This document shows, in pieces, positions 2,067-27,147 of a stretch of 37,548 nucleotides of DNA. The first letter of the stretch is position 1; each line of letters opens with the position of its first letter. The stretch spans positions 1 to 37,548 of the forward strand of contig CAYOGU010000001.1 in NCBI GenBank assembly GCA_964403345.1. Direction: 5' to 3'. The notes under the pieces were generated by a model. The model saw nothing but the letters and a program-made list of their open reading frames with translations, was not told the DNA's origin and made no database searches. Source of the stretch: an uncultured Syntrophus sp. Lineage in GTDB: Bacteria > Desulfobacterota > Syntrophia > Syntrophales > UBA5619. The position numbers and the translations under genes were made by a program.

Positions 2067-2075
2067 CCGCACACA

Positions 2076-4675: not shown

Positions 4676-4773
4676 GGCTTTCACGACTCCTTATCCCGTT
4701 CGAAGGGTGCAGCCGTCCGCTCATCACGACGGCTGCACCCTCAGGCACTCCGACTCGTTCGACCGAGAACCGG

Positions 4774-5865: not shown

Positions 5866-6006
5866 GCCACATCCTCCTTCATTCTGTGAAAATCACTTAT
5901 GATCCCAACCGATGCCGGATCATCCCTTGGTCTTCATCGCAACCGATGAGATTCCAGCGCAACCTGGAAAGAGGCCCGCAGGCCGCCCTCGTTCACGTCG
6001 CGCAAC

Positions 6007-7782: not shown

Positions 7783-7828
7783 CCTTGCCTCCCGTTCCCC
7801 TCTTCGATTCGTCCAGGCTCGGTTGATT

Positions 7829-8623: not shown

Positions 8624-8727
8624 GGTGTCTCCTCCTTTTTTGTTGAAAACCCCAAGGGGTGCCGTGTACGGAGGCCGGGTATTCCGGATCGCTGGAGGAC
8701 CACCGACCACCGTCGCACGGCTTTGGC

Positions 8728-10290: not shown

Positions 10291-10348
10291 GAATCCCCCC
10301 CTTCCTTCCTCCCGCACGTCCATAGGGCCGTGCGGGAGGGTCCGATCC

Positions 10349-11236: not shown

Positions 11237-11254
11237 GATGCTGCCTCCTTGACC

Positions 11255-13030
11255 TTAGAAGAGTCCCCGGACCCGGCCTGTCTCCACATCAACGTCGACC
11301 CGGCGGTAGGCGGGATCGGACGCCGTCCCCGGCATCAGTTTGATTTCCCCCGCCACCGGGACGAGGAACTTCGCTCCCCCGTAGATGAGGATGTCCCGGA
11401 TGGGGAGGGTCCAGTTCCTCGGCCGCCCCTTGAGGGCCGGATCGTGGGTGAGGCTCAGGTGCGTCTTGACCATGCAGGTGGTAAAATCCTGAAACATTGG
11501 ATCGGCCTCGAACCGCTCGGCCTTGTCCAGAGCGGCCGGCGAATAGGTGACGTAGTCGGCCCCGTAGATCTCCTGGGCGATCTTTTCGATCCGTCCGCGC
11601 AACGGAAGTTTCTGATCGTAAAGGAACCGGAAGGTGTTCTCCTGTTCGCAGGCCTCGACCACGGCATCGGCCAGTTCGAGGGCCCCCTCGCCGCCCTTGA
11701 GCCAATGTTCGGAGAGGGCGACCCTGGCTCCCGCCTGCTCGCCCAGGCGGCGCAACAGCTTGACTTCCTCCTTCGTGTCCGTATGAAAGCTGTTGATGCA
11801 GACCACCGGGCTGATCCCCGCCTTCTTGACGGTCTCGATATGGGCCAAGAGGTTCTCGAAGCCCTTCTCGAGGAGTGAAAGGTTCTCCGTCGTGTAGGCG
11901 GGATCGAGCTTCTTGCCCGGAGCGACCTTCGGCCCGCCGCCGTGCATCTTGAGCGCCCGGATCGTGGCGACGATCACGGCGCAGCTCGGGACGAGGCCGC
12001 TCAAGCGGCACTTGATGTTCCAGAATTTCTCAAACCCGATATCGGCCCCGAAGCCGCTTTCCGTCACATGGTAATCGGTCAGCTTGAGGGCCACGCGGTC
12101 GGCGATGATCGAATTCTGACCGACGGCGATGTTGGCGAAAGGACCGGCATGGACGAAGACCGGCTGGCCTTCGATGGTCTGAAGGAGGTTGGGGTTGATC
12201 GCCTTGACCATCCAGGCGGTCATCGCACCGGCCACATCCAGATCGGAGGTGGTCACCGGCTCGCCCCATCGGTTGTAGGCCACGACGATCCGCCCCATCC
12301 GTTCGCGCAGATCCTTGATCCCCGTTGCGATGGAGAGGATGGCCATGATCTCGGAGCTGACGGTGATGGCGAAGCCCGAACTCATCATGAAGCCATCCAT
12401 CCTGCCTCCCAGGCCGATCACGATGTCCCGGAGGGCCTGGGCGCAAAAATCGATCACCCATTTCATCTGGACGTTCCGGGGATCGATGTCGAGCCGTTTG
12501 AGGTTCTTGGATGCGAGCACGGCGTCGTTGTAGTTGGCCTCGTGCTGCATCCGCGACGTGAGGGCGACCATCGCCAGGTTGTGGGCGCTCGACACGCAGT
12601 CGATGTCGCCGGTGAGCCCCAGGGAAAAGGGGGTGAGCGGGATGCACTGGGCGAGCCCTCCGCCCGCGGCGCTCCCCTTGATGTTGAACGTGGGTCCTCC
12701 CGACGGCTGGCGGATCGCCCCGCTGACCTTCTTTTTCCTTTTGGCCAAGCCCTGCACCAGCCCCATGACGGTTGTGCTCTTCCCCTCTCCGAGGGGAGTG
12801 GGGGTGACCGCCGTCACGTCGATGTATTTTCCGTTCGGTCTGTTCTCCAGGCGATGGAGCACCTTCAGGAAGTCCACCTTGCCGATGTGATGTCCCATCG
12901 GGATCAATTCGTCTCCCTGGATCCCGGTCTCATCCGCCAATTCGAAGATTTTCTTCATGTGCCTTTCGGCCGCCTCGGCGATCTGCCAGTCCTGCAACTT
13001 TCTCGGATCCATTTCCGTACGCTCGAACAT
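11255..13030 (-). CDS. fhs: Formate-tetrahydrofolate ligase
   Basis: 591 aa. Contains '[16 protein letters not shown]' (FTHFS P-loop). Length and overall pattern are typical. RBS AAGGAGG lies 7 nt before the ATG at 13030. Confidence 0.95.
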
Positions 13031-13101
13031 CCTTTTACCTCCTTGCTACAACCGATCCTCGTCGGTTGGACGATTCGTGCAACCCAACCATTCCACTCCA
13101 C

Positions 13102-13896
13102 TTACTCCAGTCGCCCCTTTCGGTAGGCGACAATATAACCCAAACAGGACTCGTCCCGGCCGGTAATCAATTCCCCCGCCTTGAGTGTGGCAAAGAGCTG
13201 CCGGTCCGTCGGATCGATGATCGCCGAGTCCAGCCCCCGGTCCATGGCCGCCGCGAGGAAGGTCCGGTTGATCAGGGAACGCACAGGAAGGCCGTAGGAA
13301 ACCGTACTCAGACAACAGATCGTATGCACCCCCTTGAAGCAGCCCATGATCCGACTGATGGCCTCGAGGGTGGCCCTGGCGGACTGCTGATTGGTGGACA
13401 GGGAGTAGACCAGCGGGTCGATGTAGAGGTCCCCCGGCTGGATGCCGGCAGCGGTGATTTTTTCGATAAGCATGGTCGCAATTCCCACCTTGGCGTCTGC
13501 CGTCTCGGCGGGACTATTCTCGGCCTGACAGGAGGCGACCAGTTTCGCCCGATAATCGATCGCCAGGGAGAGAATCCCCTCCATGCGTCCCTTTTCGAGG
13601 GTCACGGCGTTAATCATCGGTCGATGCTTGACGATGGGGAGGACTTCCCTGAGCACCGCCGGATCGCGGCTGTCCAGACACAGGGGAAGATCTGTGACCT
13701 CCTGGACCGCATCGATCACCCAGCGGAGGTGCACCGCCTCGTTCCGGCCGAATATCGCCGCGTTGAGATTGAGGTAGTCGGCCCCGGAGGCCTCCTGGTC
13801 ACGCGCCTCGCCATGGATGAATTCCCGGTTACGGCTGGCGATCGCCTGGGCGATGTAGCGCCGCGTGGCGTCGATCCTGTCGGCGATGATCAGCAT
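13102..13896 (-). CDS. Second methyl-THF:corrinoid methyltransferase paralog (pterin-binding domain)
   Basis: 264 aa, collinear without gaps with the 7829-8623 product (for example 'AVQEVTDLPL', 'IDPLVY', 'LDSAIIDPTD'). It reads 'CLSTVSYGLP' where the paralog has 'GLTNVSYGLP'. Confidence 0.8.
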   Translation of the reverse strand: MLIIADRIDATRRYIAQAIASRNREFIHGEARDQEASGADYLNLNAAIFGRNEAVHLRWVIDAVQEVTDLPLCLDSRDPAVLREVLPIVKHRPMINAVTLEKGRMEGILSLAIDYRAKLVASCQAENSPAETADAKVGIATMLIEKITAAGIQPGDLYIDPLVYSLSTNQQSARATLEAISRIMGCFKGVHTICCLSTVSYGLPVRSLINRTFLAAAMDRGLDSAIIDPTDRQLFATLKAGELITGRDESCLGYIVAYRKGRLE

Positions 13897-14504: not shown

Positions 14505-14966
14505 TTATATCCGGACGGTCCTCACCTGGGGGTTGGCCTTCCCGATCCCCCGGATGATCCCGTCCAATGTTTCGTCCCTGCGGTAGCAGAACAGGTAGCC
14601 GCTCTCGCGGGACAACTTGAATTTGACAAAACCGAACCCGCCGGAAAAACGGGACCCCTCGATGGCGCGGATCTGCCCGGCCGGGACCGTCAGACGCCGC
14701 CGGAAGCTCCTGAAAACCACCTGTCCCTCGGCGTCCAGGGAAACGGCGGTGAAAAGGCCCAGGGACCAGTACCAGGTGTAGCCGTAGAAAAAGGCGACCA
14801 TCGCGGCGTACCACCAGTCCCCCCTGAGCCACCCGTCCTGGAACTTCTGGACGATCAGGGGGACGGTGCCTACGGTCCACAGGGCCATGACCCCGTAGAA
14901 GATCGCCACATAGGGCGCCGGGGCATGAAACACCTTGGTTCTGTCCTTCTCCTGCCCCGATCGCAT
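14505..14966 (-). CDS. Hypothetical membrane protein (2 TM helices plus beta-rich C-terminal domain)
   Basis: The ORF is open to 15047, but the first 27 codons read through an 18-bp perfect palindrome, so I start at the ATG at 14966 ('MRSGQEKD'). No family was recognised. The C-terminal part loosely resembles bacterial PH-like domains. Confidence 0.5.
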   Translation of the reverse strand: MRSGQEKDRTKVFHAPAPYVAIFYGVMALWTVGTVPLIVQKFQDGWLRGDWWYAAMVAFFYGYTWYWSLGLFTAVSLDAEGQVVFRSFRRRLTVPAGQIRAIEGSRFSGGFGFVKFKLSRESGYLFCYRRDETLDGIIRGIGKANPQVRTVRI

Positions 14967-14984
14967 GGCCCGCCTTTTTCCCGA

Positions 14985-15024
14985 GGCGGATTCGGCGGCG
15001 GGCCGACCCGCCGCCGAATCCGCC
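14985..15024. repeat. 18-bp perfect inverted repeat with 4-nt loop
   Basis: GGCGGATTCGGCGGCGGG-CCGA-CCCGCCGCCGAATCCGCC, lying between the dctM-like stop (15058) and the next gene start (14966). Confidence 0.9.
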
Positions 15025-15057
15025 GTTGCTTCCCGACGACCTCTCACCGGCCCCTTG

Positions 15058-16374
15058 TCAGCTCCTGAAGAGATACTTGGGCGCCAAGAGGATAATGTCC
15101 GGGATGTACATGCACATCACCAGCCCCAGGAACTGCAGCCCCAGGAACGGGAAGGCCGACTTCCAGACATCCACCGTGGAGACCTCGGGCGGAGAAACGC
15201 TCTTGAGGTAGAAGAGCGACATCCCGAAGGGCGGCGTCAGGAAGGACATCTGCAGGTTCACGGCGATCAGGACCCCGAACCAGATCGGGTCGAAGCCGAG
15301 CTGCCGGATGATGGGCCCGAAGAGGGGGATGATCAGCATGAGGATCCCGACCCAGTCCACGAAGCAGCCCAGGAAGATCACGATTCCCATCATGATCCAG
15401 ATGACGACCCACCTGTTGAGGCCCGATCCCACGAGCATGACGTTGACGAAATCCCCGCCGCCCACCATGATGTAGAGGGCGATGAAGATGTTCGCCCCGA
15501 ACATGGTCCACATGACCATCCCGGTGGCCTTGATCGTGTTGACCGCGGCCTGGACCGTGTCCTTCCAGCTCAGGCGGCGCTTGATGACCCCGATGAGCCA
15601 GGCCCCGAGGCACCCGACGCCGGCCGCCTCGGTCGGGGCTGCGACGCCGATGACGATCGTCCCCAGGACCAGGAAGATCAGCATCCCGCCCGGGATGATC
15701 GGCAGGGCGACCCGGAACAGGCCGGCCCAGTCCAGACGTTCCTCCTTCGGGACGGGCGGACCCATTTTTGGGTTGATGTAGCAACGGATCGTGATGTAGA
15801 GGATGTAGAGCGCCGAGAGCAGGAAGCCCGGCAGGAAGGCCCCGGCGTAGAGCTGGCCGATGGAGGAATTGTCCACCATCCCGTAGACGATCAGCATGAC
15901 GGACGGGGGGATCAGGATCCCCAGGGTCCCGCCGGCCAGGATGCCGCCCAAAGCCAGAAGCTTGTCGTACTTGCGGTTCAGCATCTGGGGCAGGGCGATC
16001 ATGCCCATGGTGACCTCGGTGGCCCCCACGACGCCGGCCATGGCGGCCATCATGGTGCAGGCCGCGATCGTCGCCGTGGCCACGCCGCCCTTGAGCCAGC
16101 CGAGCCAGTGGTAGACCATCATGTAGATGTCCTCGATGATCCCGCTCCGCTCGAGGAGGTTCGCCATCAGGATGAACAGCGGAATGGCGTCCAGGAGGTA
16201 GTTGGTCATGAGTCCGAAGATCCGCGTCGGAACGATGTTGACAGCCTCCGGGCCCTGGAAGAAGGCGGTGAAGACGATGCCCACGAACCCGGTGGAAAAG
16301 GCCACCGGCAGGCCCAGGAACATGACCAACACCATGCTGCCGAAGATGAGTATGGTAATCCATTCGATGCTCAT
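15058..16374 (-). CDS. TRAP transporter large permease, DctM family (second system)
   Basis: 438 aa, polytopic, clearly a paralog of the 2832-4163 product (for example 'IPLFILMANLLERSG' against 'IPLFIFMGAMLERSG'). ATGA overlap with the upstream dctQ-like gene. Confidence 0.9.
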   Translation of the reverse strand: MSIEWITILIFGSMVLVMFLGLPVAFSTGFVGIVFTAFFQGPEAVNIVPTRIFGLMTNYLLDAIPLFILMANLLERSGIIEDIYMMVYHWLGWLKGGVATATIAACTMMAAMAGVVGATEVTMGMIALPQMLNRKYDKLLALGGILAGGTLGILIPPSVMLIVYGMVDNSSIGQLYAGAFLPGFLLSALYILYITIRCYINPKMGPPVPKEERLDWAGLFRVALPIIPGGMLIFLVLGTIVIGVAAPTEAAGVGCLGAWLIGVIKRRLSWKDTVQAAVNTIKATGMVMWTMFGANIFIALYIMVGGGDFVNVMLVGSGLNRWVVIWIMMGIVIFLGCFVDWVGILMLIIPLFGPIIRQLGFDPIWFGVLIAVNLQMSFLTPPFGMSLFYLKSVSPPEVSTVDVWKSAFPFLGLQFLGLVMCMYIPDIILLAPKYLFRS

Positions 16375-16916
16375 TTAAATTCCCTCCCTGTAAAGGCCAT
16401 GTGGGCGTCCCGGATGGTCCAGACGATGCCCTGCAGGAGGAGCAGCACCCCGCCGACGGGCATCAGGATCTTGACGGGATAGAGGGGAGGGGCCCAGTCC
16501 GTGAAGGAGGCCTCGCCGGGGATCTCGATCCCCAAAAAGGTGTTCCCCGCGGTCATCCACTGGGAGCTCCAGTAGAACTGCCAGGAGGTCCAGATGTAGA
16601 CCAGAACGAAGATATAGAAGAATACGGCGGTGACCAGGTCCATGACCGCCTTGGTCCGGGGGCTGCGCGTCGCGTAGATCACGTCGACCCGCACATGGGC
16701 CCGCCAGTAGTGGGCCACGCCCACGACCATGACGTAGTACATGGCGAACAGGGAGTACATCAGCTCATGGCCCCAGTTCGTCGGCATGCCGAAGACGTAG
16801 CGCATGATCACCTCGAAGGAGATCACGACCACGCAGACCAGCGAAATATAAGCCATCATCTTGCCAACGAAGAGGTTGGTCTTTTCGACGGCCATCATAA
16901 AGGTTCTCAAGTCCAT
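16371..16916 (-). CDS. TRAP transporter small permease, DctQ family (second system)
   Basis: 181 aa with 4 TM helices. Shares 'PPLYPVKI' with the first DctQ-like protein. Its position between the dctP-like and dctM-like genes fits. Confidence 0.85.
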   Translation of the reverse strand: MDLRTFMMAVEKTNLFVGKMMAYISLVCVVVISFEVIMRYVFGMPTNWGHELMYSLFAMYYVMVVGVAHYWRAHVRVDVIYATRSPRTKAVMDLVTAVFFYIFVLVYIWTSWQFYWSSQWMTAGNTFLGIEIPGEASFTDWAPPLYPVKILMPVGGVLLLLQGIVWTIRDAHMAFTGREFK

Positions 16917-17100
16917 GGTTCAGCCTTTCCAAGCGAATTCTTCGACGGCCCCTCTGCCTCGGGCCGTCCGACGGTCTCTCACGCTCTCCCTGCGTCCCCA
17001 GGGGATTGCGGCGATGCAGCGTGATCCCAAAATCCCAGAGTGATGGGTAAAAGGGACTCCTCGAAGGGCGAGGCCGGCCCTTCCCCTGAAGGCCGCGTTT

Positions 17101-17131
17101 AAAAAAGGCGGGGGGAGGGACTCCCCCCGCC
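17101..17131 (-). terminator. Rho-independent terminator/attenuator after the Tat-type dctP-like gene
   Basis: The minus strand reads GGCGGGGGGAG-TCC-CTCCCCCCGCC followed by TTTTTTAAA. The stem is an 11-bp perfect GC-rich pairing that begins 10 nt after the TAG stop at 17142-17144. Confidence 0.75.
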
Positions 17132-17141
17132 CGGAACGGAT

Positions 17142-18293
17142 CTAGAAGGTGATCTTCTTGCCGTTGCGGTCCACCATGTCCTTGTCGGAGTAGTAGCCGA
17201 CCTTGATGGACTTCATGAACTCCCACTGGGACTTGAAGGCCTTCATCGCCAGCGGGTCCTTCTTGGCCCAGGTCACCCAGAGCTCGGGGGCGAACTTCTG
17301 GAACTTCTCGATGTCCGACTCCTTCAGGCGGATGATCTCGCAACCCTTGGCCAGGTACTTGGGAATCGCCTCGAGGTCGGCCTTCTGGTTCCCGGTGTAG
17401 TGGTCAACGGAGTGCCAGGCCACGGCCGCTTCGACCAGATCCTGGAGGTGCTTGGGAAGGGCCTTCCACTTGTTCATGTTGACCTCGATGCTCATCAAGT
17501 CGACGGGCTGGTGGAGGCACGGGGTGGAGGGGGGGCCGATGATGATGTACTTGGCGATCTCGGCGAACCCCAGGTTGTAGTTGACGGCCCAGCCCACGAA
17601 GTCGGCGGCGTCGATGACCCCCTTCTCCAGGGCCGGATAGACCTCCCCGCCCGGCAGGAGGACCGTGGAGACGCCGGCGGCGCGGTAGATGTCCGCGATG
17701 ATCCCGCCCGGGTAGCGGATCTTCTTGCCTTTGAAGTCCTCGAAGGAGCGGATGGGCTTCTTGGAGTGGATCAGGTTGTCGTCATGCTGGATCGGCCCCA
17801 GGTACATCAGGTTGTGCTTGCCGTAGGCCTCGCGGGCGATTTCCCGGCCGCCCAAGACATAGTACCAGGTGTCCCACTGGTCGGGGCGGTCCAGGGCGAA
17901 GGGGTAGGAGGACAGGAAGGTGCAGGCAGGGACCTTCCCGGGCCAGTAAACGTCGAAGCTGTGGTAGGCGTCGAAAACGCCCGCCTTGACGGCGTCGAAC
18001 ATCTCGAAGGTCCCGACGATCGCGCCCGCGGGCAGGCCTTCGATCGTCAGCTTGCCCTCGGTCATCTCGCCGACCTTGGCGCAGAACTTCTTGAACAGGT
18101 CGAACCCGACCGTCCCGGCGTCCCAGCAGGTCTGCATCTTCCATTTGATCGGAGCCGCTGCGGAAAGGCGCATCACACCGGGAAATCCCATGACCCCCGC
18201 CGCGGTTCCTGCCGCGACCGCGGCGGTCTTTAAAAAGGTACGTCTTGACTTGGTCTCCTTAGGTGATTTGACCTTCTTCGCTTCCTTACTCAT
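17142..18293 (-). CDS. TRAP transporter substrate-binding protein, DctP family, with twin-arginine (Tat) signal
   Basis: 'SRRTFLKTAAVAAGTAAG' is a consensus S-R-R-x-F-L-K Tat motif. 'KGKKIRYPGG' carries the DctP-family carboxylate-binding Arg. The track starts at a TTG at 18299, whereas the ATG at 18293 sits 7 nt after AAGGAGG. Confidence 0.85.
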   Translation of the reverse strand: MSKEAKKVKSPKETKSRRTFLKTAAVAAGTAAGVMGFPGVMRLSAAAPIKWKMQTCWDAGTVGFDLFKKFCAKVGEMTEGKLTIEGLPAGAIVGTFEMFDAVKAGVFDAYHSFDVYWPGKVPACTFLSSYPFALDRPDQWDTWYYVLGGREIAREAYGKHNLMYLGPIQHDDNLIHSKKPIRSFEDFKGKKIRYPGGIIADIYRAAGVSTVLLPGGEVYPALEKGVIDAADFVGWAVNYNLGFAEIAKYIIIGPPSTPCLHQPVDLMSIEVNMNKWKALPKHLQDLVEAAVAWHSVDHYTGNQKADLEAIPKYLAKGCEIIRLKESDIEKFQKFAPELWVTWAKKDPLAMKAFKSQWEFMKSIKVGYYSDKDMVDRNGKKITF

Positions 18294-18541
18294 TAGCAAT
18301 CCTCCTTGTTAAATGGGTTTAAAAGGACCCGACCGCCCACCTGATGATGCCCGGTCAGGACAGACATAAACTCACTCCATGGAAAGTACTGCTTTTAGAG
18401 ATAAAACGCCTTGTTCGGTCACCTCGCCTTGATCAGCCGTTTTACAGGATGGAACCCCTTGGTCCCTTAGCATCCCGGTCCGAGGCTGTCAATAAGAAAA
18501 AAACCCTCCTTTCATTCTTGCCTTTCTTCTGGTCCGTGCCC

Positions 18542-18592: not shown

Positions 18593-19891
18593 TCATTTGC
18601 TGTTCGCCAGGGCCGCCTGGAGGAGCTCCACCGGATGCATGGTCCTCATCCCCCGGGCCGGATCCAGGTGGTTGGAAATGGTCACGTTGCACCCCGGGCA
18701 GCAGGTGGCCACCACCTGGGCCTTGGTGCTGTTGATGTTGTCGATCTTGCGCTTGGTGATCTTGGCCGAGATCTCGCCGTGCTCCACCTGGAAGGAGCCG
18801 CCGCCGCCGCAGCAGTCGTTGGCCCCGGGCATCTCGACGTACTCGACGCCGGGGATCGACTTGAGGATATTCCTCGGCTGGGCGCTGATCTTCTGCCCCT
18901 TCACCAGGTGGCAGGGGTCGTGATAGGTCACGCGGAGCTTCTGCCCGTTCTCGCCGAGCTTGGGCAGCCAGTCCTTGTGCGCGTCGATGAAGACGGTCAC
19001 GTCCTGGGTCTTGGAAGCCAGGAGCTCCGCCTTCTTGATCTCCTCGTCCGTCACCTTCTCCCCAAGTTCCCGGAGGTCCTTGAGCAGGTTGGTGTACTCG
19101 TTCTTCAGGGCCGCACCGCAGGTCCCGCAGTCGACCAGGACCGCGTCCACGTCCCCCCGGGCGAAGAGTTTCAAGGTCTCACGGATGATCTCGACCGAGG
19201 TTTCCCGGTCGCCGGAGAGGAAGATCGGCAGGCCGCAGCAGCCCTGGTCCTTGGGGATGATCACCTCGACCCCCATCCGGGACAGGACGTCGACCACGGC
19301 GTTGCCGATGCTGCCGAAGACGAAGTTCGTCGCGCAGCCGTGGAAGTAGAGAACCTTTGCCTTGGCCTTGCCGCTCTTCGGGGCGACCACCTCCGGAACC
19401 GTGTCGGAGAAGGCCTTCTTGTTGAAGGGCGGGATGCGGTCGACCGAAAGGGCTCCGGCCTTGAGCTTTCTCTCGATCCAGGGGCCGCTGAAGTTCCGGC
19501 GCGCCCACCCGCCCAAAGCAGCGGACTTGGACATGAGCCAGCGGTTCGCCAGGACCCGGAACATCAGGCTCTTCCTCCAGTCGATCCCGTATTTCTGCTT
19601 CGCCCGCCAGCGGATGCCGGAGAAGAGATGGTCCCCGTGCACGCCGCTCGGACAGTTGGCGACGCAGGAGCCGCAGAGCAGACAGGTCGAGAAGAAGGCC
19701 TCCTTGACCTGTTCGCTCAGATCGAGCTTTCCCTCCGCCAGCGACCGGGAGAGCTGGACCTTGCCGCGGGGGCTGGCCACCTCCAGGAGCTCCTCCTTGT
19801 AAACCGGGCAGTGGGCCAGGCACAAACCGCATTTGACGCAATGATAGATATTTTCACCTGTCTGGTTGCTGAGCAATTTTTTGTCTTCCAT
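18593..19891 (-). CDS. Fe-S subunit, GlcF-like (two 4Fe-4S ferredoxin motifs plus two CCG domains)
   Basis: 432 aa. Contains 'CVKCGLCLAHCP', 'CLLCGSCVANCP', 'CCGLP' and 'CCGGGG', which is the GlcF/HdrD-like architecture. Confidence 0.8.
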   Translation of the reverse strand: MEDKKLLSNQTGENIYHCVKCGLCLAHCPVYKEELLEVASPRGKVQLSRSLAEGKLDLSEQVKEAFFSTCLLCGSCVANCPSGVHGDHLFSGIRWRAKQKYGIDWRKSLMFRVLANRWLMSKSAALGGWARRNFSGPWIERKLKAGALSVDRIPPFNKKAFSDTVPEVVAPKSGKAKAKVLYFHGCATNFVFGSIGNAVVDVLSRMGVEVIIPKDQGCCGLPIFLSGDRETSVEIIRETLKLFARGDVDAVLVDCGTCGAALKNEYTNLLKDLRELGEKVTDEEIKKAELLASKTQDVTVFIDAHKDWLPKLGENGQKLRVTYHDPCHLVKGQKISAQPRNILKSIPGVEYVEMPGANDCCGGGGSFQVEHGEISAKITKRKIDNINSTKAQVVATCCPGCNVTISNHLDPARGMRTMHPVELLQAALANSK

Positions 19892-20074: not shown

Positions 20075-21442
20075 TCAGACGCCGGCCACAAACCGGCCGG
20101 GATTCAGGATTCCCGATGGATCCAGCTTCTCCTTCAGGCGGCGGACCAGAACCGCATCGCTGCGGGTCTTTCCCCATACGCTGAGTTTCTCCTTGATCGC
20201 CCGCGGGGCCTTCTGGACGACGAGGTTGCCGCCCTGTTTCACCGATTCCGCAGTGAGACGCTCCACCAGCGATGCGACCGATGCCGCCTTGGCCGCCGTG
20301 TCCGCACCCAGGGGAAGCGCTGCATACAGCAGGCCGTTGCCGGCCCGGCAGGTCAAGGCGCCTTCCAGAGAGGCCTCCTTGAGGGCCGCCTCGAAGGCCG
20401 TCACCATCTCAGGCACCTTGGACAGAACGAAATTGGATTTGAGGACCACCAGGTTGGGTGAGGCTTTGGCCAGGGTCCCGGCCAGATCCCCGTAGGCCGT
20501 CCAGAAATCGCGGTGCGCCTGGTCCTTGAGCGTGACCACGTCCAGCGCCCCGCCTTTGCGGCCCAGGTCGCCAAGTTCCGTGACCTGGCGCGCCACCGCC
20601 TCCTCGATCCCTTCCAGGCCGATCGCCGCCACGTAGGACCCCTTCAAGCCGGCGGAAGCCTTGAAGGCGGAGGCCGTCTTGGCGTTCATCAGTTCCATCG
20701 AGGCGGGGAAGAACTTGGAGTGGAGGAGCATCTTGAGATAGGCAGCGGCTTCGTTCAGGGTGCCGAAGGGGATCAGGAGCGTCGCCTCGGCGTCCGGCTT
20801 GGGATAGATCCGGAAGACGACCTCGCAGAGGATCCCCAGGGCGCCCATGGAGCCGATCATCATCTTGGTCATGTCGTAGCCGGCCACGTTCTTCACGGCC
20901 TTGCCGCCCGAAACGACGATATCCCCGTTGGGCATGACGGTCTTGACCCCGAGGATGACATCCCGCGCGGCCCCGTAGATGAAACGTTTCGGGCCGCTGT
21001 CGTTGGTCGCCACGATTCCGCCGATGGTCGCCTCCTGGGAGTAGGGAGGATCCAGGGGGATAAAATACCCCCTCCCCTCTCCCGCCAGCTTCTGCTGAAC
21101 CTCTGCCAGCGTCAGGCCGCACTCCACACCCACGGTCAGGTTGGCGATGTCGTAGTCGGCATAGCGCTTCAGCCTCCGGGTCGAAAGGAGGATATCCGCC
21201 TTCTTCTTGGGAATGCCGCCCAGGCCCATCTTGGTCCCGCTCCCCATCGGAACGACGGACAGCTTTTCGGCGTTGGCGCAGGCGAGGACTTTCGATACCT
21301 CTTCGATCGTCCCGGGAGCGACGAACAGGCCGGGAGCATCCCCATCCACCGCGTAGGCCTTGAGCTTTTCCGGATCTTCGATCACATTGGCCTCGCCGAC
21401 AATGGCCTTCATTTTCGAAGCCAATTTATCATAGTTGGACAT
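20075..21442 (-). CDS. FAD-binding oxidase subunit, GlcE-like
   Basis: 455 aa. PCMH-type FAD-binding domain ('VVPMGSGTKMGLGG'). Located between the GlcD-like and GlcF-like genes. Confidence 0.75.
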   Translation of the reverse strand: MSNYDKLASKMKAIVGEANVIEDPEKLKAYAVDGDAPGLFVAPGTIEEVSKVLACANAEKLSVVPMGSGTKMGLGGIPKKKADILLSTRRLKRYADYDIANLTVGVECGLTLAEVQQKLAGEGRGYFIPLDPPYSQEATIGGIVATNDSGPKRFIYGAARDVILGVKTVMPNGDIVVSGGKAVKNVAGYDMTKMMIGSMGALGILCEVVFRIYPKPDAEATLLIPFGTLNEAAAYLKMLLHSKFFPASMELMNAKTASAFKASAGLKGSYVAAIGLEGIEEAVARQVTELGDLGRKGGALDVVTLKDQAHRDFWTAYGDLAGTLAKASPNLVVLKSNFVLSKVPEMVTAFEAALKEASLEGALTCRAGNGLLYAALPLGADTAAKAASVASLVERLTAESVKQGGNLVVQKAPRAIKEKLSVWGKTRSDAVLVRRLKEKLDPSGILNPGRFVAGV

Positions 21443-21463: not shown

Positions 21464-22852
21464 TCAGGCCGCCTTTTCCGCCGGGAGCAGTTTTCCGGGG
21501 TTGTAGACTCCATCCGGGTCAAAGGCCAGTTTCACATTCCGCATCGCGGCAAGGTCCTGCGGGCTGAAAATAAAGGGCATCCCCTTGAGCTTCTCGACGC
21601 CGATGCCGTGCTCGCCGCTGATCGTCCCGCCCATCTTGGCGCAGATCTCCATGATCTCGAAGGCCGCCTTGTGCACCCGTTCCAGTTCGTCGGCGTCCCT
21701 CTGGTCGAAGAGGATGAGCGGATGGAGGTTTCCGTCCCCCGCATGGAAGACGTTGGCGATGGGGAGGTTGTACTTCTTGCCGATCTCGACCACCTTGGCC
21801 AGGGCCTCGGGAAGCCGGGTCCTGGGCACGGTCGGGTCGTTGACCAGATAGTTGGGACGGAGCCGTCCGACGGCCCCGAAGGCCCCCTTGCGGCCCGCCC
21901 AGATCTTGTCCCGCTCGGCGTCGGTCTTCGCCACGCGAACCTCGCGGACTTTGTTCTGTTTGCAGATGGCGACCACCTGATCGATCAGCCGGTCCATGCC
22001 GTCCTTGAGGCCGTCCAGCTCGATCAGGAGGATCGACGCGGCGTCCTCGGGAAGCCCCACGTGGTAGGCCGCCTCGACCGCTTTGATCGTCAGGTTGTCC
22101 ATCATCTCCAGCGTCGTGGGGATCATCCCGGCCTTGACGATGTCCGAGACGGTGTTGGCGCCATCGGCGATCGTGTCATAGATGGCCAGCATCGTCTTGA
22201 CCGCCTCGGTCTTCGGCATCATCCGGAGGACGAGCTTCGTCACCATCCCGAGCGTTCCCTCCGAACCGACCAGCAGGCCCGGAAAATCGAACCCCGGGTT
22301 GTCGAGAGACTTGCCGCCGATCTCGACCACCTGCCCGTCATAGAGGACCAACTCGGCGCCGAGGATGTGGTTGCTCGTCACGCCGTATTTGAAGCAGTGG
22401 GCGCCGCCGGCGTTCTCCCCAACGTTTCCGGCGATGGTCGTCGCTTTCTCGCTGGAGGGGTCCGGGTGGTAGAGGAAGCCGTACTTGCCAATCTCGCCCT
22501 TGATGTCCAGGGTGATGGCCCCCGGCTCCACGACGACCCGCTGGTTGTCCACATCGATTTCCAGGATCCGGTTCATCCGGGTGAAAAGCAGGGCAATCCC
22601 GCCTTCGGTGGGAGAACTGCCGCCGCTGAGGTTCGTCCCGGCGCCCCTGGCGACCACGGGGATCCCGTTGTCGTGGGCGAATTTGACGACCTTGGAGACC
22701 TCTTCCGTCGAGCTGGGCATGACGATGCACAGCGGCCTTCCGGGGTTGAGGGAGGCGTCGTAGCCGTAGAGCTGAAGCTCCATCTCCGAGGCCATGACAT
22801 CCTCTTTCCCGACGATCTTCGCCAGCTCCTGGATGACTTGATTGCGTTCCAT
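21464..22852 (-). CDS. FAD-linked oxidase, GlcD-like (glycolate / D-2-hydroxyacid dehydrogenase catalytic subunit)
   Basis: 'VVARGAGTNLSGGSSP' and C-terminal 'GTISGEHGIGVEK'. The ORF is open to 22921, but the ATG at 22852 follows GAAAGGAG. Confidence 0.8.
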   Translation of the reverse strand: MERNQVIQELAKIVGKEDVMASEMELQLYGYDASLNPGRPLCIVMPSSTEEVSKVVKFAHDNGIPVVARGAGTNLSGGSSPTEGGIALLFTRMNRILEIDVDNQRVVVEPGAITLDIKGEIGKYGFLYHPDPSSEKATTIAGNVGENAGGAHCFKYGVTSNHILGAELVLYDGQVVEIGGKSLDNPGFDFPGLLVGSEGTLGMVTKLVLRMMPKTEAVKTMLAIYDTIADGANTVSDIVKAGMIPTTLEMMDNLTIKAVEAAYHVGLPEDAASILLIELDGLKDGMDRLIDQVVAICKQNKVREVRVAKTDAERDKIWAGRKGAFGAVGRLRPNYLVNDPTVPRTRLPEALAKVVEIGKKYNLPIANVFHAGDGNLHPLILFDQRDADELERVHKAAFEIMEICAKMGGTISGEHGIGVEKLKGMPFIFSPQDLAAMRNVKLAFDPDGVYNPGKLLPAEKAA

Positions 22853-22920
22853 AACTTGACTCCTTTCAACGACCCGGACCGCATCTTCCCTTGGAAGCGG
22901 TTGAGGCGTCGCTTGAAACA

Positions 22921-22957
22921 AAGCGAAGCAATCCCGAAAAAGGCGATTGCTTCGCTT
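22921..22957 (-). terminator. Hairpin (13-bp perfect stem) between the citE-like and glcD-like genes; candidate terminator or processing site
   Basis: AAGCGAAGCAATC-(11 nt)-GATTGCTTCGCTT. On the minus strand it is followed by TGTTTCAAG, a short and imperfect U-tract. Confidence 0.4.
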
Positions 22958-23095: not shown

Positions 23096-23989
23096 TTACT
23101 TCTTCCGGAGGGCCTCCATGTCCTTGATCTCCTTTTCCTGGGACAGGATCGTCCGGGCGTTGTCGTAGACCGGCGTGTCGACCATCTTGCCCTTGTAGGA
23201 AACGGCGGCTTTGCCCATCGCAAGCCCTTCTTTCTCGAAGACGTCCACAACGCCGGCGGCCCATTCGACCTGCGCCGGGGTCGGCCGGTAGAGACGGTTG
23301 GAGGGTTCGACCTGGGTGGGATGGATCAGCATCCTGCCCTCGTAACCCATCTGGCGGCCTTCCATGACGCTCTTCTCGAAGGCCGGGATGTTCGCGAAAT
23401 CGACGAAGGGGCAGTCGATGGCGATGCAGCCGGCGGCGCGGGCGGCCACGGCGGTGTAGTACCGGCCGTAGAGCTGCTCGGTGGCCTCGGTCGTCAGGTC
23501 CACGCGCATATCCTTGCAGTAGTCGACGGCGCCAAAGATCAGCGAGCAGACGCGTTTGCTGGCCGTGGCGGATGCATAGGCGTTGATCATGCCCTTGGCC
23601 GTCTCGATCAGGAGCTGGATCGCGATGCTGCCCACCTGCAGGCCGCGCCGTCTCTCGAGTTCTTCGAGCTTCCAGTCGAGCCTCTTGACGTCGTCGGGAT
23701 GGCCGGTCTTGGCCAGGCACACGCCGTGGAGCCCCTCATGGACGATCGCCTCGAGGTCGTCGTTGGTCAGCAGGGTTTCCCAGTTGTTGATGCGGGAGAA
23801 GACCTTTGCGCCGCCCTTGCCGGCATGCTTCAGGTTCGCGGCGATGATCTCGCGAGCCTTTGCTTTCTCGGAGGGGGGAACGGAATCCTCCAGATCCAGG
23901 GTAATGATGTCGGCCGGGACTTCCGGGGCCTTGCCGACGAATTTCTCGTTGTTGCCGGGAACATAGAAAACGGACCTCATGACTGCCAT
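23096..23989 (-). CDS. HpcH/HpaI-CitE family CoA-ester lyase (malyl-/citramalyl-/citryl-CoA lyase-like)
   Basis: 297 aa. Contains 'VFYVPGNNEKF' and 'ITLDLEDSVPP', which are CitE-family N-terminal motifs. RBS AAAGGAG. Confidence 0.8.
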   Translation of the reverse strand: MAVMRSVFYVPGNNEKFVGKAPEVPADIITLDLEDSVPPSEKAKAREIIAANLKHAGKGGAKVFSRINNWETLLTNDDLEAIVHEGLHGVCLAKTGHPDDVKRLDWKLEELERRRGLQVGSIAIQLLIETAKGMINAYASATASKRVCSLIFGAVDYCKDMRVDLTTEATEQLYGRYYTAVAARAAGCIAIDCPFVDFANIPAFEKSVMEGRQMGYEGRMLIHPTQVEPSNRLYRPTPAQVEWAAGVVDVFEKEGLAMGKAAVSYKGKMVDTPVYDNARTILSQEKEIKDMEALRKK

Positions 23990-24017: not shown

Positions 24018-24932
24018 TTATTTGACCCTGAGTTTGCCCTGCTGTTTGAACTCCCTGAGTTTCCCCGGGATCTCGTTGGGATTGTCCACCACGATGATTC
24101 CCGCTTCCCTGAGCCGCGTGATCTTGTCTTGAGTCGAACCGCTGCCTCGCTCCACGATGGCGCTGGCGTGGGAGAACTTCATCCCGGCTGGCGCCCAGGC
24201 ACCGGACACGTAGATGATGATCGGCTTGGTGAACTTGCCGGACTTCACCAACTGGGCCGCCTCCTCTTCGTGGGAGCCGCCCATCTCGCCGAAGATGGCC
24301 ATGACATCCGTATCAGGGTCTTCCTGGTACAGGGGCAGAACGTCGGCAAAGGACATGCCCGTCACCGGCTCGGTCCCCACATGGAGGACCGTGCTGACGC
24401 CGAAACCCGCCTGGGCGATGACGTAGGGAAGGGTTCCCGACTGACCGCCGCTGCGGGAGATGACCCCCACATGGCCCGGCACGAAGTGCCGGTTGGCAAA
24501 CTCGACCGAACCGCCCAGCCATCCCAATACGCCCACACCCGGGGCGTTGACCCCGATGGAGCCCGGTCCCAGGAGCTTGGCCCCCTTCTGTTTCGCGTAG
24601 GCGACCATCTCCAGGATGTCGAAGAGGGGAACGCGCTCGACGGGCATGACAAGCCACTTGACGTCCGAATCCAAGGCCTCGAGGACGGCGTCCTTCAGAC
24701 CGGTCCCAGGGATGAAGGTCACGGAGACATCGAACAGACCGTGGTTCTTTACCGCGTCCCTGACTGTATTGTACACGGGGATCCCGTCCACTTCCTCGCC
24801 GCCGCGGCCAGGCGTAACGCCGGCGACGACGTTCGTCCCCATGCGCCGCATGAACTTGGCGCGCATGGAACCTTCCCGGCCCGTAATCCCCTGAATCACC
24901 ACTTTCGTTGACTTTGTCAGCAAGATAGCCAT
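24018..24932 (-). CDS. NDP-forming acyl-CoA synthetase alpha subunit, SucD-like
   Basis: Aligns by eye along its length with E. coli SucD ('TKVVIQGITGREG', 'GVTPGRGG', 'GVISRSG', 'KFSHASAIV' with the phospho-His). ATG at 24932 follows AAGGTGG. The upstream extension to 25043 overlaps the neighbouring gene. Confidence 0.85.
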   Translation of the reverse strand: MAILLTKSTKVVIQGITGREGSMRAKFMRRMGTNVVAGVTPGRGGEEVDGIPVYNTVRDAVKNHGLFDVSVTFIPGTGLKDAVLEALDSDVKWLVMPVERVPLFDILEMVAYAKQKGAKLLGPGSIGVNAPGVGVLGWLGGSVEFANRHFVPGHVGVISRSGGQSGTLPYVIAQAGFGVSTVLHVGTEPVTGMSFADVLPLYQEDPDTDVMAIFGEMGGSHEEEAAQLVKSGKFTKPIIIYVSGAWAPAGMKFSHASAIVERGSGSTQDKITRLREAGIIVVDNPNEIPGKLREFKQQGKLRVK

Positions 24933-24951: not shown

Positions 24952-25227
24952 TTAGGATATTCCGTGCTTCTTACGGTACTCGTCCAGCCCCGGGATCGGC
25001 GCCTCGATCTTGATGGCCCCTTTTCCCCTGAACCCGCACTCATATTCGCATGCCAGGCACTCCGTCCCGAGCCGCTTGGCGTCCCCTTCCACGACGGGTT
25101 TGCCGTCTTTCAGGACCAATATCCCCCGAGCGTAGGTCTTGCAGGCCGCGATGCAGGCCTTGGACTCACATGCTGCGCATTTGCTGTCATCGATGATGAC
25201 CTTGATCGTCTGTTCCTGAAACTCCAT
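24952..25227 (-). CDS. Small Cys-rich ferredoxin-like protein inserted between the synthetase subunits
   Basis: 91 aa. Strong RBS AAAGGAGG. Seven Cys arranged as C-x2-C-x4-C-x3-C ... C-x2-C-x3-C, which is not the canonical C-x2-C-x2-C-x3-CP pattern. Confidence 0.6.
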   Translation of the reverse strand: MEFQEQTIKVIIDDSKCAACESKACIAACKTYARGILVLKDGKPVVEGDAKRLGTECLACEYECGFRGKGAIKIEAPIPGLDEYRKKHGIS

Positions 25228-25239
25228 GGGTGGCCTCCT

Positions 25240-26499
25240 TTACCCTTTCTTCTGCTGTTCTTTCTTGTATTCGAGAACCATCTCCTTCATCTCCGCGGCG
25301 AGCCCGACCGTGTCATAGACACGTTCGCCGCCGTAGATCCGGATCCGGGCGTTGAGATCCTTCGTCCCTTCCCTCAGGATTTCCAAGGACTCCTTCTCCT
25401 TGTTGCCCGCCAGGAGCAGCATGACCGGGAAGCCGGGATATTTGGGCAGTTCCTCCCTCAGGGCCTTGACGACGCCGTGGGCATGGTGCCACTGTTCCTG
25501 ATTGGCGGCCATGAATCCGCCCAGCATGTAGCCATCAATGCCAGGCTGGGAGAAGACGAGCTTGGCCGCGCGGTAGACCTTGGAGGCAGGGGGGTTGCCG
25601 CTCGTATCGGCGAAGTCGGGGACCCGGAGGCCCTGCTTGTTGAGGCCGTCGACGCCGAGCATGGCGCCACCGCCGCCCATGCCGTGATAACCGATCGTCC
25701 CGAAGCACTCCCCCTTGATCTGGTTGTTCATCTCGGCGAAGTAGCAGGTCCCACGGAGATCCTTCTCCTCCACCCACCAGGCGATCTTGTCCAGCTCCGT
25801 GGGGGGCGTTCCCGACTCGCGGGCCACCTCGATCCCCAGTTCGGGATGGCGGATGGCGGAGGAGTCGTCGATGGAAAGCCGGCAGTCGCTGGCCAGGACC
25901 TTGCCGTCCTTGGTGACGACCATGGGGTTGATCTCGATGAGGCGGCAACCGAAATTCTTGAAGGTTTCGTACAGTCCGACCAGGAGGCGGGCGACCTGGG
26001 TGATGTGTGCGCTGGGAACCCTGACCTTGTTGGCGAGGTTGAGGGCGTCGTAGATCTTGAAGCCGCGGATGACATCGATGTTCATCATGGCGATCTTGTC
26101 GCCGGGGACCGATTCGATGTCCATGCCGCCCTCGGTGGAGAACATGAAGACGGGGCAGCGGGCGTCGGCCTGGGCGTTCACAACGATACCCGCATAGTAT
26201 TCCCGGTCGATGGCCAGCTTCTCCTCGACCAGGACCTTCTCCACCAGGTAACCCTTGATCGTGGCCCCCAGGAGGGCGGCCGCCTGTTTCTCAGCCTCGG
26301 CAGGGGTATCGGCAAACTTTACGCCGCCCGCCTTCCCGCGGCCGCCGGTCCAGATCTGGACCTTGATGACAACGGGTTTTCCCAGTTTTTCTGCAATCTT
26401 TCTGGCTTCTTCCGGGGTCTTGGCGACAGCCCCTTCGGGGATCGGCATCTTGGCAATCTTGAACAACGCTTTACCCTCATGCTCATTTAAACGAGCCAT
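25240..26499 (-). CDS. NDP-forming acyl-CoA synthetase beta subunit (ATP-grasp), SucC-like
   Basis: 419 aa. 'LNEHEGKALF', 'VVIKVQIWTGGRGKAGGVKF' and 'YAGIV' resemble the SucC N-terminal ATP-grasp. The C-terminal ligase-CoA region is divergent ('DFADTSGNPP' where SucC has 'NFLDVGGGA'). RBS TAGGAGG. Confidence 0.8.
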   Translation of the reverse strand: MARLNEHEGKALFKIAKMPIPEGAVAKTPEEARKIAEKLGKPVVIKVQIWTGGRGKAGGVKFADTPAEAEKQAAALLGATIKGYLVEKVLVEEKLAIDREYYAGIVVNAQADARCPVFMFSTEGGMDIESVPGDKIAMMNIDVIRGFKIYDALNLANKVRVPSAHITQVARLLVGLYETFKNFGCRLIEINPMVVTKDGKVLASDCRLSIDDSSAIRHPELGIEVARESGTPPTELDKIAWWVEEKDLRGTCYFAEMNNQIKGECFGTIGYHGMGGGGAMLGVDGLNKQGLRVPDFADTSGNPPASKVYRAAKLVFSQPGIDGYMLGGFMAANQEQWHHAHGVVKALREELPKYPGFPVMLLLAGNKEKESLEILREGTKDLNARIRIYGGERVYDTVGLAAEMKEMVLEYKKEQQKKG

Positions 26500-26745
26500 A
26501 CCTACCTCCTAAGACGTTCGATTGTTTCAATTTTCCATCCGATTGCTCGGATTGCTTCCGCGCAGACTTTTCGACCTCCCCTGCCCCGGGCCGTTCACCC
26601 CTGGGACCGTTCCGGTGCAACAAAAGGTGTAATAAAAAATGAAGGGAAGGCTAAATTTTTAACAGACGGGTTTTGAGATGTCAATACGAAACCCCTTTCT
26701 CCGATTTCATCGGGCTGGGACCTGGTCGGCCTTTGGGTGGAGCGT

Positions 26746-26760
26746 ATCTGGTTACCAGAT
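26746..26760. promoter_or_regulatory. Palindrome ATCTGGT-T-ACCAGAT abutting the -12 element (candidate operator at the predicted transcription start)
   Basis: 7-bp perfect arms with a 1-nt spacer, lying within 2 nt downstream (in the minus sense) of the TTGC -12 box. Confidence 0.35.
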
Positions 26761-26761
26761 A

Positions 26762-26776
26762 GCAATATGGGTGCCA
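26762..26776 (-). promoter_or_regulatory. Sigma-54 (-24/-12) promoter
   Basis: The minus strand reads TTGGCACCCATATTGCT, that is TGGCAC-N5-TTGC with exact GG/GC spacing. It sits about 260 nt upstream of the sucC-like ATG at 26499, in an AT-rich gap. Confidence 0.75.
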
Positions 26777-26833
26777 ATAGGTGAAACAACTCGGGCTTTT
26801 CACTGAAAAGGAACTTAGATTTTTCTCTTTGAA

Positions 26834-26846
26834 TATCAAGATATTG
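26834..26846. promoter_or_regulatory. IHF-type bending site
   Basis: TATCAAGATATTG matches WATCAANNNNTTR exactly. It lies between the sigma-54 core promoter and the upstream palindromes. Confidence 0.45.
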
Positions 26847-26924
26847 ACAATGCAAGAGGGGAAAGGACGACCGTTTGCAGGGCGGAACGGCTTCAGGGGA
26901 ATCACCTGCCCGGAGGGCCAAAAA

Positions 26925-26939
26925 GTGCGGATATCGCAC
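26925..26939. promoter_or_regulatory. Candidate enhancer-binding-protein site 1 (GTGC-N7-GCAC)
   Basis: aGTGCGGATATCGCACt. The arms AGTGCG and CGCACT are perfect reverse complements. About 150 bp upstream of the -24 element. Confidence 0.5.
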
Positions 26940-26992
26940 TGGATGCCTCATCGGTCCGAGGGATCAAGGCCACTGCTCGTAGAAAGGCGGAT

Positions 26993-27007
26993 GTGCGTAT
27001 CAAGCAC
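26993..27007. promoter_or_regulatory. Candidate enhancer-binding-protein site 2 (GTGC-N7-GCAC)
   Basis: atGTGCGTATCAAGCACat, with complementary arms ATGTGC and GCACAT. Confidence 0.5.
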
Positions 27008-27012
27008 ATATT

Positions 27013-27027
27013 GTGCTTTTGCGGCAC
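27013..27027. promoter_or_regulatory. Candidate enhancer-binding-protein site 3 (GTGC-N7-GCAC)
   Basis: tGTGCTTTTGCGGCACa, with complementary arms TGTGC and GCACA. Its start is 20 bp (two helical turns) from the start of site 2. Confidence 0.5.
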
Positions 27028-27147
27028 ACCCAAGAGACTCCTCGCCGGGACCTCCCGGGATTCAGGGGGACCACGGGGAGAGTCAAAGATCCCGATGACA
27101 ATCGGACGGTGCAGACCGCCTGCAATGCGCTCCCCATTCCCCCGCAC

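Follow-up and report, generated by a model that had tools for sequence, protein, structure and literature searches.

A ferredoxin-like small protein as a probable third subunit of SucCD/CcsAB-type acyl-CoA synthetases in anaerobes

Many structures have been solved for the textbook enzymes succinyl-CoA synthetase (SCS), citryl-CoA synthetase (CCS) and ATP-citrate lyase, and to our knowledge none of these enzymes is known to carry metal clusters. A 37,548-nt stretch from an uncultured Syntrophus sp. (contig CAYOGU010000001.1; this whole stretch is called the window hereafter) raises the question of what a Cys-rich open reading frame (ORF) of 91 aa is doing between the genes for the beta and alpha subunits of such a synthetase. 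The answer that we favour, as probable rather than settled, is that the ORF encodes a ferredoxin-fold iron-sulfur (Fe-S) protein, which would be an obligate third subunit of a clade of SucCD/CcsAB-type synthetases and would act as a non-catalytic structural or redox/O2-sensing module. The designation of a putative third Fe-S subunit is well supported by comparative genomics.

The genes form a tight minus-strand series, in the order beta, 91-aa ORF, alpha and CitE-type lyase, separated by gaps of 12, 19 and 28 nt:

25240-26499, minus strand: beta (large, ATP-grasp) subunit of a SucC/CcsA-like, nucleoside diphosphate (NDP)-forming acyl-CoA synthetase, 419 aa, ATP-grasp_2
25234-25238, minus strand: Shine-Dalgarno sequence GGAGG of the small gene, read from the sequence
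24952-25227, minus strand: 91-aa protein with seven Cys and a putative ferredoxin fold, the proposed Fe-S "gamma" subunit, from the ORF and its homologues
24018-24932, minus strand: alpha (CoA-binding, phosphohistidine) subunit, 304 aa, Pfam CoA_binding and Ligase_CoA
23096-23989, minus strand: CitE/HpcH_HpaI-type acyl-CoA lyase (malyl-, citramalyl- or citryl-CoA lyase-like), 297 aa, Pfam HpcH_HpaI, E = 2e-37

A first-pass annotation, made from the letters alone, had placed the 91-aa ORF between the two subunit genes at distances of 12 and 19 nt and given it a strong ribosome-binding site, and both statements were confirmed from the coordinates and the sequence. The beta stop codon TAA occupies 25240-25242, leaving 12 nt to the small gene; GGAGG (25238-25234) stands six nt ahead of the ATG at 25227, and AAAGGAGG at this site overlaps the beta stop codon. 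The true start of alpha is the ATG at 24932 (MAILLTK...), which gives the 19-nt gap, while the mechanical ORF list runs alpha to 25043; alpha has a GGTGG of its own seven nt 5' of the start. The lyase gene, overlooked in the first-pass annotation, lies directly 3' of alpha. Every plausible gene of the window, which has a GC content of 62% and many long spurious ORFs, is on the minus strand. Transcription of the small gene together with beta and alpha is probable, and so is its translational coupling to them.

Searched against 5.8 billion proteins, the small protein had 194 homologues of 91-96 aa with 65-93% identity, none of which (0/194) carried a precomputed Pfam domain. In an assembly index the window small protein occurred on 2-kb contigs only, and the window beta was absent. 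Among genomes scanned at one per species, 270 had a relative, the hosts being Syntrophales, Syntrophorhabdales, Desulfatiglandaceae, Desulfofustis, Desulfohalobiaceae and Nitrospirota metagenome-assembled genomes (MAGs). The small ORF was intact in all the related loci compared (84/84), with a median dN/dS of 0.085 against the window; it is a real gene under selection. Whether it is conserved between sucC-like and sucD-like genes in related genomes had been proposed as a check, and the order beta-small-alpha proved invariant wherever the contig extends: alpha came next after the small gene in 85/85 loci, beta stood ahead of it in every one of the 85 whose contig reaches that far, and CitE followed alpha in all but two of the loci extending far enough. 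In the loci furthest from the window, conservation was 67-76% for the small protein vs 55-66% for beta or alpha.

Both partners of the small gene are of the two-subunit SucCD type, with an ATP-grasp beta and a CoA-binding alpha. The window beta matched Pfam ATP-grasp_2 (E = 6e-52) and weakly Citrate_bind, and its best solved-structure match was 3ufx_B, an SCS beta subunit (213 bits), followed by 6hxq_B, a CCS large subunit (147 bits). Alpha matched CoA_binding (E = 3e-21) and Ligase_CoA, with 2yv2_A as its best solved-structure match (265 bits), and kept the catalytic His, its SHASA being aligned to the GHAGA of 2yv2_A and 2yv1_A.

Fusions tie the small protein to the beta subunit. A profile search with the small-protein family against 1.84 billion representatives yielded 136 relatives, many of them proteins of 470-541 aa with the domain at the C-terminus; by Pfam, these long relatives comprise ATP-grasp_2 and Citrate_bind, i.e. 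a SucC/CcsA-like beta, with a C-terminal ferredoxin-like (Fd) domain. Searching with one fusion gave at least 120 fusion clusters of 510-535 aa, from Zixibacteria, Acidobacteriota, Gemmatimonadota, Anaerolineae, KSB1 and Cloacimonetes, annotated as "succinyl-CoA synthetase beta" or "ATP-grasp domain protein", and the eight Cys of the appended domain were all invariant in 49 fusion sequences. The window beta was 45% identical to the beta part of one fusion, P0257 (311 bits, far above any solved SCS at 213 bits or the CCS of Hydrogenobacter thermophilus at 147 bits), and its C-terminal domain shared 40% identity with the small ORF; the window therefore carries the split form of a beta-Fd unit. 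The C-terminal helix of the small protein, PGLDEYRKK, is conserved and common to the fusions. An AlphaFold2 model of P0257 had a predicted local distance difference test (pLDDT) score of 90 and a predicted template modelling (pTM) score of 0.83, with pLDDT 83-96 in the Fd domain, scores that would fit a fixed, docked Fd domain. In a Foldseek comparison of this model with the PDB only the beta part was aligned (~405-425 columns), and no solved structure with the Fd module was found. As in the fusions, the separate small protein would dock at the C-terminal end of beta.

In two fused loci (L086 and L089) the beta-Fd gene is followed by alpha, a 258-aa protein that passes the NCBIfam citryl-CoA lyase cutoffs, and aconitase, with isocitrate dehydrogenase also present in L086. 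A conserved 177-aa protein, with a weak HDIG-domain match (24.5 bits vs a cutoff of 27.6), comes after the Ccl-type lyase in both (11301-11834 in L086 and 11391-11924 in L089). On a Cloacimonetes-like contig (L087/L088, 8001-9572) a beta-Fd fusion without adjacent alpha or lyase has a carboxyltransferase gene on one side and a Tex gene on the other.

The stand-alone arrangement reaches well beyond the close relatives. In distant stand-alone proteins the eight Cys were all invariant at a mean identity of 38%, and their genes too are placed between those for beta and alpha, the start overlapping the beta 3' end. CitE came next after beta-Fd-alpha in a Bathyarchaeia genome and, together with a PrpD-family gene, on a JGI metagenome contig; a Ccl-type lyase came next in a Bacillota MAG (split locus L092), where the cluster was flanked by class I fumarase/mesaconase-like genes and a methylaspartate ammonia-lyase gene. 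The distribution of the family is biased to anaerobes.

In the window, dehydrogenase and transporter genes lie downstream of the lyase:

21464-22921, minus strand: GlcD, 2-hydroxyacid (glycolate) dehydrogenase gene
20075-21442, minus strand: GlcE-like 2-hydroxyacid (glycolate) dehydrogenase gene
18593-19891, minus strand: GlcF-like 2-hydroxyacid (glycolate) dehydrogenase gene, with CCG and Fer4_8
15058-18299, minus strand: tripartite ATP-independent periplasmic (TRAP) transporter genes DctP, DctQ and DctM (context)

In related loci GlcDEF was often, not always, found downstream of the core cluster, and some close loci without an adjacent GlcD had a formyltransferase, FolD/methylenetetrahydrofolate reductase (MTHFR), 2-hydroxyacid dehydrogenase or OadA-like carboxylase instead. 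From this survey of neighbours the conserved unit is therefore beta, Fd, alpha and an acyl-CoA lyase of CitE or Ccl type; because the lyase type is variable and GlcDEF is not always near, the module belongs to the synthetase and not to the dehydrogenase. The suggestion, made at first reading, that the small protein hands electrons to or from the GlcDEF-like dehydrogenase is accordingly not supported: beta and alpha keep the module in loci without a nearby GlcD, and it is also kept beside citryl-CoA lyase, beside aconitase and isocitrate dehydrogenase, or beside methylaspartate-pathway genes. A dedicated ferredoxin for GlcDEF was rejected, the association being independent of GlcDEF.

Some neighbourhoods departed from the common layout. 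In a Desulfohalobiaceae MAG (L071, 6763-9421) the place of CitE after beta-Fd-alpha was taken by genes for an aldehyde:ferredoxin oxidoreductase and an NAD_binding_2/11 dehydrogenase, and the gaps around the small gene were unusually long (~250 nt and 150 nt); locus L079 was without a CitE match. In a distant relative (L001, 13289-15871) GlcD-like and GlcE-like FAD-binding proteins were fused (860 aa) and followed by a GlcF-like gene and a pyruvate:ferredoxin oxidoreductase (PFOR) gene. Tetrahydrofolate (THF) genes stood beside beta-Fd-alpha-CitE elsewhere, as FolD/MTHFR in L041 and as a formyltransferase in L001, L028 and L057.

The Fe-S character of the small protein was approached through its Cys. 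The pattern of seven Cys described in the first pass, C-x2-C-x4-C-x3-C ... C-x2-C-x3-C, was reproduced exactly, as C17-x2-C20-x4-C25-x3-C29 ... C57-x2-C60-x3-C64. Six Cys were invariant and C25 nearly so in a 23-sequence alignment; in a 50-sequence alignment C20, C29, C57, C60 and C64 were invariant, with C17 and C25 at 90% or more. Motif 1 (CxxCxxxxCxxxC) has Fer4_11/NrfC-type spacing, and motif 2 is the canonical CxxCxxCxxxC in most relatives and GxxCxxCxxxC in the window protein, which has seven of the eight Cys of an eight-ligand ferredoxin, whereas the fused and distant relatives have all eight. At the first Cys position of motif 2, 84/84 loci of the window subclade had Gly, and a few representatives had Asp or Ala; when the window family was aligned to the 8-Cys family by hhalign (99.9% probability), G54 fell opposite that Cys. 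Three proteins (P0127, P0138 and P0159) have Asp for the first motif-2 Cys (DTECLACE and similar), and two (P0126 and P0167) have Asp for the second (CIEDLGCE, CTEDMTCQ); the latter pattern is reminiscent of 3Fe/4Fe clusters that are convertible or have an Asp ligand, as in the Pyrococcus furiosus ferredoxin.

Among distant 8-Cys relatives, 10/29 matched Fer4_9 and related Fer4 families at E <= 1e-3 (best 1e-7). The stand-alone AlphaFold2 model of the window protein showed a ferredoxin-like alternation of strands and helices, and its Foldseek matches were nearly all Fe-S ferredoxin-like (HdrA, archaeal RNA polymerase subunit D, ABCE1 and 3Fe-4S ferredoxins); a PDB sequence search with the family profile gave no significant match. 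The earlier proposal of a third, metal- or Fe-S-binding subunit is supported, on comparative evidence, by the invariant gene order, the beta-Fd fusions, the invariant Cys and the affinity to the ferredoxin superfamily. The structural Zn site offered beside it became less likely, given the eight-Cys dicluster spacing and the Fer4 Pfam matches of the wider family.

That the arrangement was not recognised from characterised systems, as first reported, is consistent with the libraries and literature searched: the small-protein module was found in no family of Pfam or NCBIfam, no solved structure and no paper, and full-text literature searches, directed at the Fe-S module and at the malyl-CoA pathway, returned nothing on SCS-, CCS- or Mtk-like enzymes with an Fe-S subunit or domain. 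One published data set contains what appears to be the same operon. In Desulfitobacterium hafniense DCB-2 the operon ACL21109-12 encodes CitE, an SCS-like alpha, the "hypothetical protein" ACL21111 and an SCS-like beta, and adjoins the malic enzyme gene ACL21108 (PMC9888536). All five proteins were detected and were co-upregulated 11-30 fold in pyruvate-only vs pyruvate/fumarate cultures and 5-14 fold vs other respiratory conditions, with a 5-11 fold rise of ACL21111 alongside the synthetase subunits; the authors gave ACL21111 no function and stated that the substrates could not be inferred (PMC9888536).

Clostridial ferredoxins are the model for the cluster ligands: on this model C17, C20, C25 and C64 would hold one [4Fe-4S] cluster, and C57, C60 and C29 the other cluster. 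The ancestral module would have carried two [4Fe-4S] clusters on its eight Cys. With Gly in place of the first motif-2 Cys, the window protein is predicted to have one 4-Cys and one 3-Cys cluster, the first a [4Fe-4S] cluster and the second, with its three Cys, either [3Fe-4S] or [4Fe-4S] with a non-Cys ligand. The ligase would interconvert acid + CoA + NTP and acyl-CoA + NDP + Pi by way of the conserved alpha His, a reaction that requires no electrons. The module is most likely structural or redox/O2-sensing, because neither ligase nor lyase chemistry calls for electrons and a conserved redox partner is missing, and it may tie the assembly or activity of the enzyme to reduced, anoxic conditions. 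The Fe-S domains of ABCE1 and of archaeal RNA polymerase subunit D are precedents for a non-catalytic module. Both adjacency and fusion, as expected of a stoichiometric third subunit, were found here (adjacency in 85/85 loci, fusion in more than 100 clusters, and split forms in archaea and Bacillota).

Several observations weigh against this reading. The window protein scored below the Pfam gathering threshold (Fer4_11, 16.2 bits vs a cutoff of 26.2) and below every NCBIfam Fer4 threshold, and its Fer4_7 and Fer4_2 Pfam matches were also sub-threshold; its stand-alone model reached a pLDDT of only 77, and the Foldseek matches of that model were weak (E >= 0.17, TM 0.45-0.6). No Cys compensating for the lost ligand was found in the 7-Cys clade, in which beta has no universally conserved Cys and alpha is without any Cys, and the second cluster may therefore be absent or altered. 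On the side of the enzyme, the NCBIfam equivalogs for succinate--CoA ligase were missed (beta, 233 vs a cutoff of 370; alpha, SucD-like, 265 vs 336), as was that for the malate--CoA ligase beta subunit (161 bits vs 604). The docking site on beta is a deduction from the fusions, the structural or sensing role is a default assignment, and the metal content, complex formation and effect on activity are predictions from sequence. ACL21111 is likely rather than certain to be homologous to the small ORF, on the strength of the identical gene order. Finally, two cubane clusters 10-12 A apart are a typical electron wire.

This last point opens readings in which the module acts on electrons. As a tentative possibility, the dicluster module may be an ancestral functional redox element of a whole branch of the SCS/CCS/ATP-citrate lyase superfamily in anaerobes, either gating C-C cleavage or formation, in line with the redox gating raised at first reading, or passing electrons to a partner enzyme. 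In the former case the ATP-coupled routes through citryl-, malyl- or citramalyl-CoA, including citrate cleavage of the reductive tricarboxylic acid cycle type, would be gated by the redox state of ferredoxin; in either case ligases regarded as redox-inert would be redox-controlled or redox-coupled machines, and the beta-linker-alpha junction of ATP-citrate lyase would sit at the position of the module.

Another reading, which we judge unlikely, is that the small protein is an electron-transfer subunit whose two clusters wire the synthetase to a redox partner (2-oxoacid:ferredoxin oxidoreductase, aldehyde:ferredoxin oxidoreductase, GlcDEF or a soluble ferredoxin), the complex performing or gating a redox-coupled reaction. 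The electron-wire role is nevertheless a serious rival to a structural or sensing one: the eight-Cys dicluster is the classical electron-wire module, the anaerobic hosts are rich in ferredoxin-dependent enzymes, GlcDEF is often nearby, PFOR lies near the cluster in L001, and the aldehyde:ferredoxin oxidoreductase gene stands directly after alpha in L071. Against it, no redox partner is conserved across clades, where the neighbours are instead CitE, Ccl, aconitase, isocitrate dehydrogenase or methylaspartate-pathway genes; the ligase and lyase reactions proceed without electron transfer; and the loss of a cluster ligand in the window subclade is a poor fit to a conserved wire, though 3Fe clusters do transfer electrons.

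A Cys-rich adaptor that binds Zn or is stabilised by disulfides, with no Fe-S cluster, would account for the sub-threshold Fer4 scores and the seven Cys of the window protein, and many small Cys-rich proteins do bind Zn. It is improbable in view of the relatives, whose CxxCxxxxCxxxC ... CxxCxxCxxxC is the signature of a dicluster ferredoxin and gives significant Fer4 matches, of the fold matches, which are Fe-S domains and not zinc ribbons, and of the anaerobe-biased distribution. Improbable too is a free soluble ferredoxin that serves GlcDEF or PFOR and is encoded within the operon without being bound to the synthetase: small size, ferredoxin-like Cys motifs and the GlcDEF-like genes downstream in the window would suit such a protein, but not the more than 100 clusters in which it is covalently joined to beta, its fixed place between the two subunit genes in bacterial and archaeal genomes irrespective of nearby oxidoreductases, or the C-terminal helix shared with the fusions. 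A spurious ORF, i.e. an untranslated spacer in a GC-rich genome, has next to no probability even in a window full of long spurious ORFs, and chance was ruled out by the conservation data, with a dN/dS of 0.085, an intact frame in 84/84 loci, a strong Shine-Dalgarno sequence, homologues in archaea and Bacillota, the fusions, and a probable homologue detected by proteomics.

The best solved-structure matches of the CitE-like lyase were 5ugr (malyl-CoA/beta-methylmalyl-CoA lyase) and 5vxc (CLYBL); being of the CitE/HpcH_HpaI type, it differs from the Ccl-type lyases found in L086, L089 and L092. The substrates are likely hydroxy di- or tricarboxylates, e.g. malate, citrate or citramalate. Judged from the TRAP, GlcDEF and CitE context, the most likely pathway in the window would be the malyl-CoA route of anaerobic glycolate/glyoxylate degradation, in which the synthetase would work with the adjacent CitE-type lyase to convert glyoxylate + acetyl-CoA to malyl-CoA and then to malate + ATP; citrate or citramalate are alternative substrates. 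This pathway, with conversion of malyl-CoA to malate and ATP formation, is described in the anaerobic glycolate degraders Desulfofustis glycolicus, Syntrophobotulus glycolicus and Moorella (PMC6313629, PMC8092247). A related cluster was carried by a Desulfofustis MAG (L070).

Compared with known systems, the window enzyme shares with SucCD (Thermus aquaticus 3UFX, Escherichia coli 2SCU) the two-gene alpha/beta plan, the ATP-grasp beta and the CoA-binding alpha with its catalytic His, and SucCD gave the best sequence and fold matches for both subunits; it differs in being paired with an acyl-CoA lyase gene and in scoring below the NCBIfam equivalog cutoffs. We know of no characterised SucCD with a third Fe-S subunit or domain. 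With CcsAB and Ccl of H. thermophilus (6HXQ/6HXP) and with ATP-citrate lyase it has in common the order beta, alpha, lyase; the fused beta-Fd relatives adjoin alpha and citryl-CoA lyase, and the window beta has its weak Citrate_bind match. The domain order of ACLY, which we take to be beta-linker-alpha-CCL, mirrors the gene order beta-(Fd)-alpha-lyase. In contrast, the H. thermophilus CcsA is a 429-residue chain without an Fd domain, the alignment covers the beta part only, the window lyase is of the CitE type, and the window beta is closer to SCS than to 6hxq_B (147 bits).

MtkAB and malyl-CoA lyase, of the serine cycle and of glycolate/glyoxylate degraders, likewise place an SCS-like ligase beside a lyase of the CitE superfamily, and the GlcDEF and TRAP genes of the window fit the sequence glycolate, glyoxylate, malyl-CoA, malate + ATP; the window beta is, however, distant from the malate-CoA ligase equivalog (161 bits vs the cutoff of 604). 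As far as we know, no Fe-S subunit of MtkAB has been reported. The N-terminal domain of ABCE1 and archaeal RNA polymerase subunit D resemble the small protein in having a dicluster-type ferredoxin fold on an enzyme that needs no electrons, and they were among its top Foldseek matches (6zvj_1 and 2pa8_D), albeit weak ones (E 0.2-0.3); their host proteins are unrelated, and the likeness in function would be one of analogy. The 7Fe [3Fe-4S][4Fe-4S] and 3Fe ferredoxins (P. furiosus 1SIZ, Rhodopseudomonas palustris 4ID8) also have seven Cys and one incomplete motif and were fold matches of the window model (TM ~0.6, normalised to the target), but they are free electron carriers, and classical 3Fe sites are without the second Cys of CxxCxxC, whereas the window protein has Gly for the first Cys of motif 2.

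A synthetase family that does no electron-transfer chemistry appears to carry an undescribed Fe-S module in many anaerobes. Hundreds of anaerobic bacteria and archaea have the conserved ferredoxin-like module, encoded separately or as part of beta. It implies a further level of structure, regulation or electron coupling not yet described for SCS-like enzymes, in genes now named "succinyl-CoA synthetase beta" or "hypothetical protein". The routes touched are the degradation of glycolate and glyoxylate through malyl-CoA, with ATP made at substrate level, the cleavage and synthesis of citrate, and possibly citramalate metabolism. As the cultured D. hafniense DCB-2 appears to express the same operon, the question is directly testable there.

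The 650-nt intergenic region upstream of beta (26500-27147), which may hold regulatory elements of the operon, contained one promoter-like site:

26655-26684, minus strand: promoter-like TTGACA-18-AAAAAT, ~155 nt upstream of beta, a putative site from a consensus scan only

An Rfam scan of the whole window, this region included, gave no match. Just 3' of the TRAP DctM gene there is a 180-aa ORF (14505-15047, minus strand) with coding-like codon usage and no Pfam match. The region 175-13896, also on the minus strand, holds two corrinoid methyltransferase-type gene sets, with a URO-D/MtaA-like gene (175-1323), a B12-binding gene (1335-1976), DUF1638 (2076-2756) and a 637-aa fusion of URO-D and B12-binding domains (6007-7920), and another TRAP transporter, at 2832-5865. 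Of the Wood-Ljungdahl pathway, the same region has the methyl branch, represented by MTHFR with a DUF5981 C-terminus (8728-10323), FolD (10349-11236), formyltetrahydrofolate synthetase (11255-13030) and a pterin-binding gene (13102-13896); THF genes near the cluster, in the window and in other loci, may link glyoxylate and C1 metabolism.

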